This document shows positions 9,408 to 49,074 of a stretch of 64,000 nucleotides of DNA, one piece after another. Within the stretch, counting starts at the first letter, position 1. Each line of letters opens with the position of its first letter. The DNA lies in sequence record OQ555404.1; one strand, written 5' to 3'. The position numbers were made by a program, and so were the translations under genes. A model generated the notes under the pieces. It ran no database searches. It was not told the origin of the DNA and saw nothing but the letters and a program-made list of their open reading frames with translations. The DNA comes from Escherichia phage vB_EcoP_HC-25922.

Positions 9408-9471
9408 AAGACCTATACACGACCGAATGTAATGTATATTCTTTGTCTACATACAACTAGGAGGACAATCT

Positions 9472-26093: not shown

Positions 26094-26163
26094 TCTAAGA
26101 CCTAAGTCCTATCTCTTATAATGTATATAGGAGGTAGGACATTTTTATTTATAAGGAGACGTT

Positions 26164-35180: not shown

Positions 35181-35598
35181 ATTAATATTTCCTTATATAA
35201 ATTTAAGATTGTTGCTCTCTTTGAGCGGTTTGTATACTATATACATTACACTTATACAGATAAGGTTCTATTATACTATAACCTTTTTGGTAGTAGATAA
35301 TAACAAATAGTAATGTATATATATGGTATAGCTAGTAAAGCTATTGCAGGCTTGTATATTGGGCAATTCATAGAATCCCTTGCAAGTACCGAAGGGCAGG
35401 AGCCACCTGCGAGATAAAAATAGAGAATTAAGGAAATCCTTGATTTAGGTTGTAGGGACTCCTAGGGACTTTGATTCTCTATTTAAAAGAATATTAATTA
35501 CTTACTACCTAAATAATTAACTAACTTACTTAAACCAAACTCAAGAATAATAGATAAAAAGATTATTCCTAAGAAAGCTAAAAAGTAAAGGATATAAG
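35181..35598 (-). promoter_or_regulatory. 418-bp AT-rich non-coding region with repeats and palindromes (candidate promoter cluster or origin)
   Basis: No ORF on either strand; TATACTATA twice (35233, 35273), TAGGGACT twice (35451-35470), palindrome CTTGCAAG, hairpin GCAGG-agcca-CCTGC. Confidence 0.35.
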
Positions 35599-37988: not shown

Positions 37989-38155
37989 TACTCCCTTTCA
38001 TAAATTTTAAGAACTGTACCGCCATCTGCTTCAATCTGAGCAACTACTTCATCGCGCTCTTTATCAGAATAAACCAGTTGGTTGTGAAATTTGCCTGTAC
38101 TGTCTTGGAAATATACATTCCATTTTGGAGCAGGTTTACGAATCAAATCCATCAT
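37988..38155 (-). CDS. hypothetical small protein (below the track cutoff)
   Basis: 55-aa ORF MMDLIRKPAPKWNVYFQ...; stop overlaps the next start. Confidence 0.3.
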   Translation of the reverse strand: MMDLIRKPAPKWNVYFQDSTGKFHNQLVYSDKERDEVVAQIEADGGTVLKIYERE

Positions 38156-40896: not shown

Positions 40897-41154
40897 TTAC
40901 TCCACTGTCGGGAATGGTTTTAGGTTGTTCATGGCTGTACGAACATCAGCACAGATTTCAGGATCACGATAAGAGAGGAATTTACCATCCTTACCACGAA
41001 TCATTACATTAGTCCGTGCTGTTTTATTAGGCAATAAAGAAATCCCTCCAATAAGATGGTTGGTAGGGTGTTGTCCTTGATTAACCTTGTAGTCATGAGT
41101 CTGAGCGTCACCGTTAAAGAGATGATCACGAATTTGGATTAAGCTAATCTTCAT
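40897..41154 (-). CDS. small protein, tandem paralog 2 (NKTARTNV...DGKF...NLKPFP family)
   Basis: Start at MKISL; shares core NKTARTNVMIRGKDGKFLSYRD...NLKPFP with the upstream gene. Confidence 0.45.
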   Translation of the reverse strand: MKISLIQIRDHLFNGDAQTHDYKVNQGQHPTNHLIGGISLLPNKTARTNVMIRGKDGKFLSYRDPEICADVRTAMNNLKPFPTVE

Positions 41155-41155
41155 A

Positions 41156-41407
41156 TTATGCACCAAAGTTAGGGAAAGGTTTCAGATTTTCAATAGACTT
41201 AGCAATACGCTTAGGAACAGCCTTATCACGGAAGGAGATGAACTTTCCATCAGGACCACGAAGGGCTACATTAGTACGAGCTGTTGTTTTGTTAAACTGA
41301 ATCATCTCAACAGAGCTTGTAACATTTTCTACAGGAAAAGTATAGCTCTCAGTTGTGTTCAGAGAAGGGAGGAAATCAGTTACAGTGATGTAAGTTACTT
41401 TAGACAT
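41156..41407 (-). CDS. small protein, tandem paralog 1 (NKTTARTNV...DGKF...NLKPFP family)
   Basis: Start ATG 41407 with AAGGTAA RBS. Confidence 0.45.
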   Translation of the reverse strand: MSKVTYITVTDFLPSLNTTESYTFPVENVTSSVEMIQFNKTTARTNVALRGPDGKFISFRDKAVPKRIAKSIENLKPFPNFGA

Positions 41408-41427
41408 ATTTATTACCTTAGGTTCTA

Positions 41428-41458
41428 TAAAAGAAAAGGCCACCCGAAATGGGTAGCC
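41428..41458 (-). terminator. hairpin terminator (ggcuaccc-auuuc-ggguggcc plus U-run)
   Basis: Third copy of the GCCACCCGAA hairpin family. Confidence 0.45.
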
Positions 41459-41781: not shown

Positions 41782-41825
41782 AACTCCTTAATATATCAGT
41801 GTACACTAAGGAGTATACATTATGT

Positions 41826-43538: not shown

Positions 43539-43766
43539 TTAGATAACCTTGTGCTTATAGATGTTAGGGTTGTAGTAATGCAACCAGTTTATGTATTGCT
43601 TCTGTTCGAGGTAGTGCCTGCAATCATGACAAAAAGCATGACCCAAACCTGTTTCCTCGTTCAGCTTGAAATTGATAAGAAGCTTCTGCTTTCGACAGAA
43701 GCTACATGCTTTAGTGGGCTTCACGTAATGCATCCCAAGAGATTGGATATATTTTACGAAGCTCTT
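43539..43766 (-). CDS. Cys-rich small protein (zinc-finger-like)
   Basis: CSFCRK...CHDCRH cysteine pairs; start moved to an internal Met to limit overlap with thyX. Confidence 0.35.
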   Translation of the reverse strand, partial: KSFVKYIQSLGMHYVKPTKACSFCRKQKLLINFKLNEETGLGHAFCHDCRHYLEQKQYINWLHYYNPNIYKHKVI

Positions 43767-44361
43767 CATCAATGGTTGATGCGAACACTCGTACTTCGTA
43801 CTGAGCATGGTCTGACAGTCGCTGACGACACAACTCTGACCAACCATATAGAGAACCGGTCCATACCCACTCAGTGATCATACCCTGAGGTAATACGAAT
43901 CGAGCTTGTTCTGGAGCAATGAACTTAATCAATTCATCATACGACTCAAGAGCTGTTTCATATGCTCGGTTAATCAGAACTAGTGCAGAGTTTTGTGCTC
44001 CTGTGGTGAGGAGATTCCCTGCACCTGCATGGAGGTCCGAAGGTCTTTCAAAAATCTCTTTAGGGATGAAGAGTTCAACTGCTCCATCTTTATACCGCCG
44101 GGACATTTCGTTCCACGAGAATCCAACTTGATGCTTGCCCAGCTGTCTCGCAATTGCGATTGGCGCTTTGCATCGGAAGCTAATTGTCGGATGGCGGAAT
44201 GGTGTGACATGCTTTTCTCTGGCAAGGAACTTGATAAGGCGTTCATCTCGTTCATTTAACTCTCCTTCACGAGTAACCCCAAAGGAAACTCGAGCTGCAT
44301 TAACAACAGATTTATCAGAACCCATTGCTTCAATTAGTGTTGCTTGTAATTGTTCGTTCAT
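43711..44361 (-). CDS. thyX: FAD-dependent thymidylate synthase ThyX
   Basis: ThyX signature RHPT...SWNEMSRRY (RHR...S motif). Confidence 0.8.
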   Translation of the reverse strand: MNEQLQATLIEAMGSDKSVVNAARVSFGVTREGELNERDERLIKFLAREKHVTPFRHPTISFRCKAPIAIARQLGKHQVGFSWNEMSRRYKDGAVELFIPKEIFERPSDLHAGAGNLLTTGAQNSALVLINRAYETALESYDELIKFIAPEQARFVLPQGMITEWVWTGSLYGWSELCRQRLSDHAQYEVRVFASTIDEELRKIYPISWDALREAH

Positions 44362-44375
44362 CCTTGAATTCTTCC

Positions 44376-44591
44376 TTAGTAATGAATCTTTTTATAAATC
44401 AGGTTGCTTCCACTTTCTGTTTCAATCCCTTTCTGGATTGTAATCTTAGAAGCACCGGTATTAGCAATTTTTAAAGCTCGTTTAAAGCGGCGAGCCTCTC
44501 TCCGTGTTGTGTATGAGGAGAAGCTAGGGATTGTACTATCAAAATTAAACCACTTAACTACCCAAAAAGTAATCCAAGGTTTCTTTTCCAT
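44376..44591 (-). CDS. small protein, family A member 1 (W..W...TRxEAR...KxxY family)
   Basis: 71 aa; shares W-rich N-terminus, TRREAR and C-terminal KKIHY with two other ORFs. Confidence 0.45.
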   Translation of the reverse strand: MEKKPWITFWVVKWFNFDSTIPSFSSYTTRREARRFKRALKIANTGASKITIQKGIETESGSNLIYKKIHY

Positions 44592-44592
44592 A

Positions 44593-44868
44593 TTAAATAC
44601 CTTTCAGAGCTGTATCTAAAAACGCACGGAGGTTTGATTCAGTTTGCATACCGGACAAGCTGTAGTGAGCACCACTGTTCATGTTAGGAACCACAAAGGC
44701 TGGGATACTGCGAACACCATATTCAATGGCTCGCTCTCGACCATCACCTTCAGAGATATTTACTTCTTCAACTTCTACGTTGTAATCAGCTACAACTTTC
44801 TTAAACACAGGAGCCATAGCTGCACATGGAGCACAGGAATTACTATAAAACTTAATTACTTTACTCAT
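44593..44868 (-). CDS. thioredoxin/glutaredoxin-like protein
   Basis: CxxC active site (SNSCAPCAAM); start set at MSKVIKFY with AAGGA RBS. Confidence 0.65.
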   Translation of the reverse strand: MSKVIKFYSNSCAPCAAMAPVFKKVVADYNVEVEEVNISEGDGRERAIEYGVRSIPAFVVPNMNSGAHYSLSGMQTESNLRAFLDTALKGI

Positions 44869-45058
44869 TTTATTCCTTGTTAATAAACAGATTGATATGA
44901 CGCTGGGTAGCAGGAACAACAATAAAAGACTTATACTGCCCTTTTGCTAAATCATGAGCAATCTTCTTTGTCTGACCAAGACCCATCACACAGCCACTAA
45001 CGATAATGGCATGTGCTTGTAATTCTTCAGGTAGGTTTAGTTTCACTCTTTGGGTTCC

Positions 45059-45244
45059 TTATAGCATACAAAGAATAATAACAAGAGGTAGTGTTATAGC
45101 AAAATGTACCAGAACAACACTACCCAGCTTGATAGCTTTAACATCCTCTTCTGCTGGGTTTTCTTTAATTGCTAAATTTCGAGCTTTATATATAACAGTA
45201 CCAACTATTAACGACCACACGGCCCACACAATCAGTGAAATCAT
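45059..45244 (-). CDS. small membrane protein (family B, intact copy)
   Basis: 61 aa, two hydrophobic segments flanking KENPAEED. Confidence 0.45.
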   Translation of the reverse strand: MISLIVWAVWSLIVGTVIYKARNLAIKENPAEEDVKAIKLGSVVLVHFAITLPLVIILCML

Positions 45245-45253
45245 ATCAAACCC

Positions 45254-45440
45254 TCATGCAGTCAACAGGTGGAGAAGGAAAGGAATGACAACAGAGAAGA
45301 CTACCAGAGCAATGCTGCCATGTTTAATGGGTTTAGCGTCATTCGGGTTCTCTTTAAGCATCTGTTTCTGAGCTACATAAACGATACCGCCAACAAAAAA
45401 TTGCCCATACAGACCATACGATTGCTGAAAACATACTCAT
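45254..45440 (-). pseudogene. family B paralog disrupted by a frameshift in a T6/A6 homopolymer
   Basis: ATG 45440 with AAGGA RBS; reads MSMFSAIVWSVWAIF then stops; one frame over continues VGGIVYVAQKQMLKENPNDAKPIKHGSIALVVF, paralogous to 45059..45244. Confidence 0.4.
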
Positions 45441-45497
45441 ATCCTTATAAAGAAGTTCGCCCCACCTCTTGAACAAAGAGACAGGGCGGAGGTTTGA

Positions 45498-46073
45498 TTA
45501 GTAAGACACATCACCACTGGAGTGGGACATGTTGCTCTTGACGAAGTAACAGAACTTGCCAAGACCTTCATTAATTTCTTGAAGCATACTCTGGTCCACT
45601 GGATAGGTGCACAAGTCTGAATCAAACTCATCCATCTTCTCAATGATACACATAAGAGTCATGCACATGTCGGAAAGCATACCGTCCATGTCAAGATCAG
45701 CGTTACCTTCTCGGAACCAAGCATGACCTAAATAATTACTAGCAGTAGCATCCACTTTAACACAATGAAAGCGCATACGCTCTGCTATTCGGTCGCCTGC
45801 CTCACGAGCATAATCTTCTAGTTCATCGAACATACCATGAACACCTTGGAAACCAGCTCCAGAGACGTTCCAGTGGTAGTTCTTTGCTTTGATGTGTAGA
45901 AGTTCAAGGTTAGCTTGCACACCACACAAGATGTGTTCTAAACTGTTACCGCTAATCAGTTTATTCATTCCCTCAAGACGAGAGATAGAAGAGTCAGTAG
46001 TAGAGAATGGGTTGCTAGAACCCACTCGTGTTAGTTCTGGTAAGTCGAAGACATTATTATGCATTAGGTGCAT
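45498..46073 (-). CDS. Dps-like ferritin-superfamily protein
   Basis: Dps signature KNYHWNVSGAGFQGVHGMFDELEDYAREAGDRIAERM (HWNV.G..F...H..FEE...D.IAER). Confidence 0.7.
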   Translation of the reverse strand: MHLMHNNVFDLPELTRVGSSNPFSTTDSSISRLEGMNKLISGNSLEHILCGVQANLELLHIKAKNYHWNVSGAGFQGVHGMFDELEDYAREAGDRIAERMRFHCVKVDATASNYLGHAWFREGNADLDMDGMLSDMCMTLMCIIEKMDEFDSDLCTYPVDQSMLQEINEGLGKFCYFVKSNMSHSSGDVSY

Positions 46074-46404
46074 CCCCTTCTAAGTTAGTTGAATTAGCTA
46101 CATTACGAGCAATGTTATCCATGACCTGCTGTGTAATAACAATACAATTCTGAGGGTCTACTGATTTAGAACGCCCCATCTCAGGGTCATAGACTTTGAC
46201 TCGCTTGGCTGTTGAGCCAGTAACTTGCAACACTTTGAGAAGATAGCCTTGGTTTCCAATAGACCATGCAACAACATCACGATTCTTGATATAACGACCA
46301 AGCATGTCACGATGATAGAACTGCTGCATAACTTTAGCTTTGCTAATCTCTTCAGATGGCGGGGCCACTTTACTCAAATCTAACATAACTCTCTCCTGTT
46401 TCAT
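46057..46404 (-). CDS. hypothetical protein
   Basis: 115-aa ORF. Confidence 0.45.
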   Translation of the reverse strand: MKQERVMLDLSKVAPPSEEISKAKVMQQFYHRDMLGRYIKNRDVVAWSIGNQGYLLKVLQVTGSTAKRVKVYDPEMGRSKSVDPQNCIVITQQVMDNIARNVANSTNLEGDAPNA

Positions 46405-46456
46405 ACAATATTCTTATACTGTATATACATTTGAGAGTTATCATATCTACTACCAA

Positions 46457-46672
46457 CTAGTAATAAACCTTGCTGGATATGAATCCAGCACTGTTATGGA
46501 TATTTTCAATCCAACGATGAATCTCCACCTTTTCAGCGATTCCTAAAGCTTTTGTAGCTTTTATAGTTTTCTTAGCAAGACGAGCCTCTTGTCTTGTGTT
46601 GAATAATTGAATACAATCACCACCAAGAGCTTTGTTAGCCCATTTAGTACGAACTGCCCATAATTTATCCAT
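46457..46672 (-). CDS. small protein, family A member 2
   Basis: 71 aa; TRQEAR and C-terminal SKVYY conserved with members 1 and 3. Confidence 0.45.
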   Translation of the reverse strand: MDKLWAVRTKWANKALGGDCIQLFNTRQEARLAKKTIKATKALGIAEKVEIHRWIENIHNSAGFISSKVYY

Positions 46673-46884
46673 TAGTAATGTACCTTTCCGCTGATATAGA
46701 AACGACCTGATTTAAAGTCTTGAGCTTTGTGGATAGTGATCTTATTAATTGTGCTTTCACAACTTAATAAGAACTTCTTATGAGCGCGAGCTTCTTGACG
46801 GGTATTCCTAATACCCATTGACTCTGTACCACTGCTCCAGTGAATACGAACTACCCAACGTCTTTTCATTGTTCCAAACTCCAT
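46672..46884 (-). CDS. small protein, family A member 3
   Basis: 70 aa; TRQEAR and C-terminal GKVHY; tandem with member 2. Confidence 0.45.
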   Translation of the reverse strand: MEFGTMKRRWVVRIHWSSGTESMGIRNTRQEARAHKKFLLSCESTINKITIHKAQDFKSGRFYISGKVHY

Positions 46885-47075
46885 TATCTGTCAACCGATT
46901 TAGGGACAAACTGCATTACACAGACCTGACTACGAGGGAGATTTATTTCACAAGCGGCTCTTCTCGTCTCAATCTTAACGCTAGAATCTGGACCAACGTT
47001 AGATATAAATACTCCCATAGCAAATGCCCCAACTACAAAACCTATAGCTAAGTAAGTAGCTTTTTCTTCTTTCAT
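46884..47075 (-). CDS. small membrane protein
   Basis: 63 aa with hydrophobic segment YLAIGFVVGAFAMGVFI. Confidence 0.35.
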   Translation of the reverse strand: MKEEKATYLAIGFVVGAFAMGVFISNVGPDSSVKIETRRAACEINLPRSQVCVMQFVPKSVDR

Positions 47076-47080
47076 CTTGG

Positions 47081-47614
47081 TTATACACCCTTAGATGCAA
47101 CTACACCATTACTGCCGTTGTATCGACCCTTCACTGCATAAGAGTCATCACCAGCGTGAGAGTGTTCGAACATAACCATTTGACCAACACGCATCCCAGC
47201 ACGAACTCGTAAGCTATGATTATGGGTAACGTTATGAAATTCAAAGGTTAGTTTACTGCTGTTAAACCCTGCATCAGCCCAACCAGCATGGAGGTGGTTT
47301 AAACCACAACGAGCCATTGAGGAGCGAAGTACAAACAGGCTTGAGATGTTATCTGGAAGGTTAAACTCTTCCATTGAGTGCGCTAAGAAGAATTGCCCCG
47401 GAGTGATAACAATACCATCTTCAGGGATTTTTACTTCTTTCCACTTGAGGTTTTCTTTAGCATCAATGTCAACAATTCCGTCAGCCTGTTCTTCAACAAG
47501 GATAGTATCACCAATACGGATATCCACGCTAGCAGCGTTAACATATTTATGCTCCGCATCTAAAAAGCCATTATCAATAACGCTGTGTAATTCTTGAGAA
47601 CCTAAAAGACTCAT
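47081..47614 (-). CDS. dCTP deaminase (dUTPase superfamily)
   Basis: VDIRIGDT and GWADAGF...LTFEFHN...GQMVMFE match dCTP deaminase/dUTPase signatures. Confidence 0.75.
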   Translation of the reverse strand: MSLLGSQELHSVIDNGFLDAEHKYVNAASVDIRIGDTILVEEQADGIVDIDAKENLKWKEVKIPEDGIVITPGQFFLAHSMEEFNLPDNISSLFVLRSSMARCGLNHLHAGWADAGFNSSKLTFEFHNVTHNHSLRVRAGMRVGQMVMFEHSHAGDDSYAVKGRYNGSNGVVASKGV

Positions 47615-49074
47615 GAGTTTCTGTTTCCTTGTACAGATGATGCCAAATTATTAATCATGTTACGAGCTGTTTCACGAGATAGTGTAACACCTGCTAAGTT
47701 GTTATGAAGCTCACCAGATAGCTCACGAGCAGCAGCTCGAAGTTCTGTACCAAGTGTAGTATCGGAGTGAGCCAAACCATTACGACGACTATAAGGTCGA
47801 GGAGCTTCGTTAGCGTCATTAGCCAATGATGCAAAACCAATATGAGCAGCTTCACGAGCCGCTATAGTTGACACTCGATCTTCCGTAGGGGTTGGCAAAT
47901 CACCAACTTCTACACGTTCTATATCACCAGCACGTAGACCCTGAACGACTGAGCTTACTGTTTCCCATGAACGACGAGAACGCTGTAAATCACCCATTGA
48001 CGGAGAAGAAGCAGGTCGAACAGTTACTCCACCTGTATCATGAGTGACATGCCATGTACGAGTATCCATTCCAGAAGAGCGTGCACTACCAAAACTGCCA
48101 GTGAAAGTGTCACGAGGTGCCATTGTAGGAGGAACTGCGAATCTTTCCTGTTGCCAAGAATCGCGTCTGTTAGTTCCCGGAGTCCAAGGCTGCGTGATTG
48201 CTTCAGCACCTATAGTGGTTAATCCGCTAGACCATTCTGTCTGTAGGTTAACTTCCTCGTCCAGATAACTACGACCCCTTTCCTGAGGAATGTTTAATAT
48301 AGTTTCCATCATCTTCAGGGTATAATGACGACGCTGATTCTGATATAAATTTACACCAGCCATAGGTCCAACTAAATCACTAATCAGGTGAACTTCTGGC
48401 TCACCGAAAGCTCCCATTGCAAGGTGCATATATTCGATAGAACTGCTATAAACTGCAACAGTTGCTTCAGGCCACTTTTTGTGAACATACTTCATTTCAC
48501 GACTAGATACCACAGGAATGTCACGAGTGTATGACATTGCAAACAAACCTTCGTTTGACACATACATGTCATCAAGAGACATGAACCCCTGACAGATCAT
48601 AGGAAAGCGACGGCTTAAAGTATCCATATCCAAAGGTAGATTAATCATCATCTGGATTTTAACTTGATCAATCTCAATTTCCAGAATCTCTTGGAAAGTG
48701 AAAAGTGATTCAGTATAGGTTGTTCCACTGATAGGCTGAACTAGTCGAGATGTAACTTGAAGCCCCTTACTCTCTGTCCAAGACAAGAAGTTGTCAAGGA
48801 ATAGTGCAGCATTACTTACGTTAGCAGGGCTGTTTTCCTGACGAGTGTTCCAACGGAACCCTCCTTGAACTAGGAAGATATCAACATCATTCGGAGTTCG
48901 ATTTTGGAAGAACGTATCACGGATAGCACCACCTGCAATGACAGGATAGATACCATCAGGGACTACGTTATCTCTGATCAGATTGCGAATCAGATCAAGC
49001 CCTACGCTGAGGGCTTCTCCTTCTTGAAGGTTTAATTCAGACAATGGAATCTTAATCATTTCTACATTTTCCAA
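47611..49074 (-). CDS. Pol-beta-superfamily nucleotidyltransferase (CCA-adding enzyme or poly(A) polymerase-like head) with low-complexity C-terminal region
   Basis: AGGAIRD plus 9 aa plus DVD matches the GGxVRD...DxD head motif of tRNA nucleotidyltransferases; C-terminal 200 aa S/T/R/A-rich. Confidence 0.5.

Follow-up and report, generated by a model that had tools for sequence, protein, structure and literature searches.

Hyperplastic loci of small accessory proteins are known from several phages and include the internal-protein 'ip' locus of T4, the class II host-factor inhibitors of T7 and the anti-CRISPR clusters. The locus described here lies in a 64,000-nucleotide stretch of Escherichia phage vB_EcoP_HC-25922 (sequence record OQ555404.1; hereafter the window) and encodes three short proteins, A, B and C, of PHROG 4939, a family listed as of 'unknown function' whose phiEco32 members are gp69, gp70 and gp71. 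It resembles the hyperplastic loci in its small single-domain proteins, its variable copy number at a fixed slot and a divergence much faster than that of the flanking core genes, and the family is an instance of these familiar fast-evolving small accessory phage proteins. The differences are that the family has no sequence or specific structural relationship to the proteins of those loci, is uniformly basic with a conserved Arg/Lys motif and is not encoded at the very start of the early transcript.

The window belongs to a phiEco32-like podophage of the genus Suseptimavirus. The Gordonclarkvirinae, which comprise the phiEco32-like podophages of C3 morphotype, are common, broad-host-range E. 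coli phages in therapy studies and are reported to be unusually resistant to restriction and other defences by a mechanism that is unexplained (PMC11990801). Positions 44000-47100 of the window share 99.3% identity with Escherichia phage vB_EcoP-101114UKE3, which also belongs to Suseptimavirus (Gordonclarkvirinae), 96% with the BASEL phage Bas87 and 78-94% with further phiEco32-like podophages. Every gene around the three family members lies on the minus strand, and the three open reading frames (ORFs) are found where the original prediction placed them.

44376..44591, minus strand: member A, 71 amino acids (aa), the thyX-adjacent copy; PHROG 4939 E 5.9e-22, independent hidden Markov model (HMM) 46.0 bits.
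46457..46672, minus strand: member B, 71 aa, the final gene of the tandem array; PHROG 4939 E 2.6e-22, independent HMM 51.2 bits.
46672..46869, minus strand: member C, 65 aa from the second ATG; PHROG 4939 E 3.5e-26.

B and C form a tandem pair and A lies 1.9 kb from them, between thioredoxin and thyX, in agreement with the predicted layout of two tandem genes and a third about 2 kb away beside the same two neighbors. The ATG of B overlaps the stop codon of C (TAATG), which indicates that C and B are translationally coupled, and A starts 1 nt past the thioredoxin stop codon and ends 14 nt ahead of the thyX start. The existence of ORF C is upheld, but its proposed start does not hold as well: an alternative ATG at 46884 would give 70 aa, whereas the second ATG at 46869 (MKRRW...) is most likely the start because a GGAG lies 9 nt upstream, homologues begin with MKRRW, and the RefSeq and BASEL annotation agrees, with the counterpart of C in Bas87 and RefSeq annotated as 198 nt.

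Pairwise BLASTP with composition-adjusted matrices connects all three proteins, with E values of 2e-5 for A and B (31% identity), 2e-9 for A and C (37%) and 6e-10 for B and C (32%). The motifs on which the original prediction relied are seen in the alignment, namely an N-terminal W.V..W and, after it, TR(R/Q)EAR, a central basic stretch and K(V/I)(H/Y)Y at the C-terminal end, and each protein covers positions 1-67 of the 67 in the PHROG 4939 profile. For the independent HMM, the training set was limited to 14 sequences of the family from other phages and metagenomic contigs; A, B and C obtain 46-52 bits with it (E 1e-13 to 1e-15), whereas the runner-up among the 976 ORFs of the window reaches 8.5 bits and the highest of 3000 composition-preserving shuffles reaches 11.7 bits. 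Pairwise searches, alignment, PHROG profile and independent HMM all agree, which confirms at the sequence level that A, B and C are true paralogues; the shuffles contradict a purely compositional similarity, the outcome that had been named beforehand as fatal to the family claim. The HMM search of the window ORFs recovers exactly three copies, and the final 36 kb of the nearest complete genome, which include the part outside the window, contain no further copy.

The main site of the family is a fixed slot between dCTP deaminase and gene 68, which corresponds to the position of gp69-71 in phiEco32, with B in the position of gp69. The family also recurs at a second slot, immediately upstream of thyX. 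In the window, the slots are bordered or occupied by the following genes outside the family.

43711..44361, minus strand: ThyX thymidylate synthase, downstream border of the second slot (homologue annotation; Pfam Thy1 in related loci).
44593..44868, minus strand: thioredoxin, upstream border of the second slot (homologue annotation).
46057..46404, minus strand: gene-68 homologue, 115 aa, downstream border of the array slot (92% identical to phiEco32).
46884..47075, minus strand: 63-aa predicted single-pass membrane protein, outside the family (hydrophobic segment; family HMM negative).
47081..47614, minus strand: dCTP deaminase (dcd), upstream border of the array slot (homologue annotation; Pfam DCD in metagenomic loci; 93% identical to phiEco32).

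The tandem array in the dcd/gene-68 slot contains from one to five copies.

Bas93: 1 tandem copy.
This window: 2 tandem copies, plus the unrelated 63-aa membrane protein.
phiEco32: 3 tandem copies.
KBNP1711: 3 tandem copies.
Metagenomic relative L010: 3 tandem copies.
Metagenomic relative L007: 4 tandem copies.
Metagenomic relative L012: at least 4 tandem copies.
Metagenomic relative L008: 5 tandem copies.

The 63-aa membrane protein, which has a 62% identical homologue in KBNP1711, sits where the phiEco32 array has its third family copy (phi32_71). The thyX slot is filled in the window (by A), KBNP1711, Bas87 and the Grimontviridae phage PKM.Lu.22.1, and is empty in phiEco32 and Bas93. Of about 98 phage records, 40 carry a thyX-adjacent copy. 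The Fun/Z sensitivity reported for Kuravirus (PMC11990801) might be tied to a lack of this copy, but several Kuravirus-like phages (NJ01, 172-1 and Paul) have it. The Bas87 slot contains two family copies together with an inserted HNH homing endonuclease, and the thyX junction is, to judge from these layouts, an insertion hot spot. In Bas87 (L001 4355-5042; window junction near 44361-44376), the endonuclease and Bas87_0057 lie between thyX and the homologue of A, and Bas87_0057 is a fourth, divergent family copy of that phage (HMM E 1e-12).

A comparison of the window with phiEco32 reveals flanking proteins that are 93% (Dcd), 92% (gp68), 93% (primase-helicase) and 84% (ThyX) identical, whereas the best family matches are only 42-48% identical. 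The array changes in copy number and in content much more quickly than the genes that flank it. The variation is also unevenly distributed within the protein: in one orthologue group, the gp69-type (36 cluster representatives), the entropy is 1.39 bits in the β1-β2 loop (residues 12-18) and 0.82 bits in the β3-β4 hairpin and tail (residues 51-70), compared with 0.26 and 0.56 bits in the remaining regions. The variation is mosaic, in that one loop variant is paired with differing tail variants, which indicates recombination.

Against this variable background, a small set of residues is constant among 50 distinct family members. W5, R24, A27 and R28 are invariant (50/50), T23 and K31 are present in 49/50, and the C-terminal tyrosine (Y65) is present in 47/49. 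The start of the helix carries the motif T-R-x-(E/D)-A-R-x-x-K-(K/R). The share of basic residues is 92% at position 8 and 91% at position 32; position 48 is always Lys or Arg (100%), and basic residues are the commonest class at positions 2, 3, 35, 43, 47 and 62. No conserved Cys/His/Asp/Ser catalytic or metal-binding set is present across the 50 members, which makes an enzymatic or metal-binding role unlikely, and the best reading of the sequences is that the family consists of non-enzymatic, single-domain binder proteins of 65-82 residues.

The AlphaFold2 (AF2) model of member C is confident (predicted local distance difference test, pLDDT, 92.8; predicted template modeling score, pTM, 0.76) and adopts a β-β-α-β-β fold in which a four-stranded antiparallel sheet (strands 2-11, 16-21, 41-51 and 57-59) is accompanied by one helix (24-37). 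From sequence periodicity rather than from coordinates, T23-x-x-E26 would form a helix capping box, W5, V7, W11, A27 and L34 would form the core, and the Arg/Lys set would form a conserved cationic surface. The isoelectric point (pI) is 9.7-10.75 and the net charge about +5 to +10 in all 28 members analyzed, which contain 11-17 Lys+Arg and 3-9 Asp+Glu.

The family is narrowly distributed. By tblastn, 98 phage records contain at least one copy each, and almost all of them carry the name of an Escherichia or Shigella phage; HMM and structure searches extend the range to phiEco32-like phages of Salmonella and Cronobacter and to one Grimontviridae phage. The three phiEco32 genes (phi32_69, phi32_70 and phi32_71) are all HMM-positive, and the window proteins do not differ from gp69-71 in size, in their full-length HMM match or in the dCTP deaminase-gene 68 slot. 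An exhaustive HMMER scan of 1.84 billion representative proteins finds only 18 genuine family clusters, and 61 clusters, all of them unnamed, come from a broader profile used in a word-indexed search against 5.8 billion proteins. Every relative found is a single-domain protein of 65-82 aa, with no fusions, and the metagenomic relatives reside on phage-sized contigs of 45-87 kb wherever the contig is long enough to judge. On these searches, the family is lineage-restricted to the phiEco32-like phages plus one Grimontviridae phage. A 1068-aa protein (P0022) with 10 'matches' in the exhaustive scan was rejected as a low-complexity tandem-repeat protein.

Sequence searches of Pfam, NCBIfam, PADLOC and the PDB are negative for both single proteins and profiles. 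In particular, no Pfam family matches A, B, C or the 29 members that were scanned singly, at E values up to 10; the PADLOC defense-system HMMs do not match A, B or C; and NCBIfam returns only two chance matches, both to member B, of 14 and 12 bits where the cut-offs are 400 and 718. The Gifsy-1 protein STM2610 (PDB 4dy5) shares 'LKVLQTRNEARKNK' with the motif at E 0.5, which is judged to be chance because STM2610 is a signal-peptide-bearing, pre-peptidase-C-like protein and the match is limited to about 20 residues. The genes are annotated as 'hypothetical protein' throughout the Kuravirus, Suseptimavirus and Nieuwekanaalvirus genomes, and a literature search by gene name finds no mention of the phiEco32 gp69-71 genes in the papers searched.

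The structure search likewise returns only generic fold neighbors, and the BFVD viral library gives just family members and uncharacterized proteins. The small phage inhibitors T4 Dmd antitoxin (5hy3_B) and AcrIIC3 (6je4_I) have a β-sheet-plus-helix fold. The strand-helix pattern 'W.V...F.T..EA' occurs in the three-stranded-sheet DNA-binding domains of the AP2/ERF and integrase arm types and in DUF2188, which share with the family a basic character and an opening β-hairpin followed by a helix with a Thr capping box and Glu-Ala. None of these three is matched in the Pfam scans of A, B, C and the 29 members, and the β-β-β-α order of the AP2/ERF and integrase arm-type domains is not that of the family. 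The swapped-hairpin DNA binders AbrB, MazE and SpoVT have β-β-α-β-β protomers, the same order as the family model; no Pfam MazE_antitoxin or AbrB match is obtained at E up to 10. The acidic surface of DNA-mimic anti-restriction proteins (Ocr, ArdA and Arn) is incompatible with the high pI of the family.

The position of the genes relative to the transcription program of related phages bears on their possible role. B is separated from the gene-68 homologue by 52 nt, and this gap contains AATGTATA, the core of the consensus (tAATGTAtA) for the middle/late gp36-sigma promoters of phiEco32. Exact copies number 7 in the window against 2.3 expected. The motif search places them as follows.

46424..46431, minus strand: AATGTATA between B and the gene-68 homologue.
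9431-9438, 26120-26127 and 35312-35319, plus strand: other AATGTATA sites.
35240-35247, 38112-38119 and 41814-41821, minus strand: other AATGTATA sites.

At most sites, the strand of the motif agrees with the local direction of transcription. In phiEco32, mapping has placed six gp36-sigma promoters upstream of genes 6, 13, 26, 40, 58 and 68, the one ahead of gene 68 being gp36-dependent (PMC8948821). In the SU10 study, the gene-class assignments, which are made by homology, place CDS 69-125 in the early class and CDS 25-68 in the middle class (PMC4281155). Together with the gene-68 promoter, these classes suggest by homology that the early block ends with B and C, directly upstream of that promoter, and that A is a middle gene within the replication and nucleotide-metabolism block; by analogy, the motif at 46424-46431 would mark the early/middle boundary. 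The premise of the original prediction that the family belongs to the early region is consequently retained for B and C, as the last two early genes, and not for A. None of the family proteins figures among the non-structural proteins that were detected in the SU10 proteome (PMC4281155).

Two hairpins are present near these genes. The first, at 46471-46490 (minus strand), has an 8-bp stem, TGCTGGAT-TCAT-ATCCAGCA, that is followed by a T-rich stretch and falls within the last 35 nt of B, a short way upstream of the promoter motif of gene 68; it may be a weak end-of-early-transcript signal or may be due to chance. The second is a terminator-like hairpin with a 13-bp stem at 45458-45488 (minus strand), directly after the Dps-like gene (45498-46073), and may act as a partial terminator in the middle operon, ahead of the genes for small membrane proteins, thioredoxin and A. 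The small membrane proteins are predicted from hydrophobic ORFs, two or three in number and very short (about 40-61 aa), at 45059-45476 (minus strand), between the Dps-like gene and thioredoxin; these ORFs are kept in relatives as 'hypothetical'.

The predicted shape and the conserved positive charges suggest DNA, RNA or another negatively charged partner, and the explanation that we tentatively favor is a cationic anchor that binds nucleic acid or another polyanion, in paralogues that have diverged in specificity and serve an accessory role in host interaction. A constant cationic surface would be formed by R24, R28, K31 and K32 and by the basic positions of strands 1 and 3; it would anchor the protein on its polyanionic partner, for which the phosphate backbone of DNA or RNA is the likeliest candidate, and the two variable loops that flank this surface may give each paralogue its own specificity. 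The proteins would be made alongside the replication and nucleotide-metabolism genes at the early-to-middle switch and may act as accessory, partly redundant modulators of the host-phage interaction rather than as housekeeping factors. The small ORFs of the window are generally basic, which weakens the argument from high pI, so that the charge argument rests on positional conservation; the about ten conserved basic positions point to a polyanionic partner such as nucleic acid, a possibility absent from the original prediction. A stronger form of the explanation, that the array is a new class of basic, nucleic-acid-associating counter-defense proteins underlying part of the defense resistance of the Gordonclarkvirinae, is improbable. 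The shared Arg/Lys helix would in that case sit on phage DNA or on an RNA or DNA component of the host immune system, and the two variable loops would let each paralogue block a different nuclease or sensor.

Nearly equal to the favored explanation, and likewise short of probable, is the possibility that the proteins are protein-targeting inhibitors of host or anti-phage defense proteins. The conserved scaffold would here present its two hypervariable loops to a variable host target, and the basic face would meet an acidic or nucleic-acid-binding surface of that target rather than nucleic acid itself. This possibility is consistent with the turnover pattern and with the unexplained restriction-modification resistance reported for the Gordonclarkvirinae (PMC11990801), whereas the basic charge, the late place in the early operon and the lack of homology to known proteins argue against it. 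The suggestion in the original prediction of a host-takeover or anti-defense function is partly supported: the family evolves as expected of host-interaction genes (one to five copies, at most 48% identity between flanks of 84-93%, mosaic loops), but nothing in Pfam, NCBIfam, PADLOC or the PDB links it to a known protein of this kind, and its fold neighbors are generic.

It is rather unlikely that the proteins are accessory subunits or regulators of the phage enzymes for dTTP synthesis and replication (dCTP deaminase, ThyX, thioredoxin-polymerase) or of the translation of their mRNAs. Both slots adjoin pyrimidine-deoxynucleotide enzymes, with the array after dcd and the dispersed copy before thyX; the thyX adjacency recurs in a phage of another family, Grimontviridae; and the start and stop codons are tightly coupled to neighboring genes. 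An obligatory partner of Dcd (93%) or ThyX (84%) should, however, show similar conservation and exist as a single copy, whereas the family members are 42-48% identical and number one to five. Additionally, phiEco32, Bas93 and over half of the records lack the thyX copy, and synteny inherited from a common ancestor accounts for the positions equally well.

Still less credible is a view of the genes as selfish or hitch-hiking ORFs that are tied to homing endonucleases or recombination hot spots and are useless to the phage. The unstable copy number and the extra divergent copy of Bas87, which adjoins the HNH endonuclease inserted at the thyX site, are what this view would lead one to expect, but no endonuclease lies beside any of the three window copies, and at least one copy is found in each of the 98 Escherichia and Shigella phage records recovered by tblastn. 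Furthermore, seven residues are invariant or nearly so among members that are 25-48% identical, which indicates purifying selection on protein function. Finally, that the similarity is compositional or that the ORFs are not genes, an idea prompted by short, lysine- and arginine-rich ORFs, can be set aside with near certainty in view of the composition-adjusted BLASTP and HMM scores given above, the confident fold prediction and the maintenance of the family across about 100 genomes and metagenomic contigs despite low DNA identity.

Two other observations concern genes outside the family. A nucleotidyltransferase resembling class II CCA-adding enzymes is encoded at 47611-49074 (minus strand), between dCTP deaminase and an exonuclease, and shares only 30-41% identity with the corresponding phiEco32 and KBNP1711 proteins, in alignments that cover 44-62% of it, whereas its neighbors are 80-93% identical, which suggests that it is another fast-evolving gene of the block; the BASEL authors have speculated that the nucleotidyltransferase has a part in an unknown DNA modification. 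A second pair of tandem paralogues, unrelated to the family, lies just downstream of the DNA polymerase gene at 40897-41166 (minus strand, 89 aa) and 41156-41443 (minus strand, 95 aa). The two proteins are 38% identical (BLASTP E 2e-15), share '...ARTNV.(I/L)RG.DGKF(L/I)S(Y/F)RD...NLKPFP' and are 'hypothetical' in relatives.

The family was already catalogued as PHROG 4939, and about 100 genomes record its genes as 'hypothetical'. The features that appear not to have been recognized before are the paralogy, the array of one to five copies with its second slot, the invariant TRxEARxxK helix, the loop-centered mosaic variation and the confident orphan fold. If the proteins are ordinary nucleic-acid binders or are dispensable, the interest of the family would be local only. 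Bas87 and Bas88, close relatives that infect E. coli K-12 with restored O-antigen, encode proteins that are 99-100% identical to those of the window. The family is a well-defined and cheap target for the assignment of function because it occurs in all 98 Escherichia and Shigella records recovered, is hypervariable and of varying copy number, has a confidently predicted fold and offers few invariant residues to mutate.

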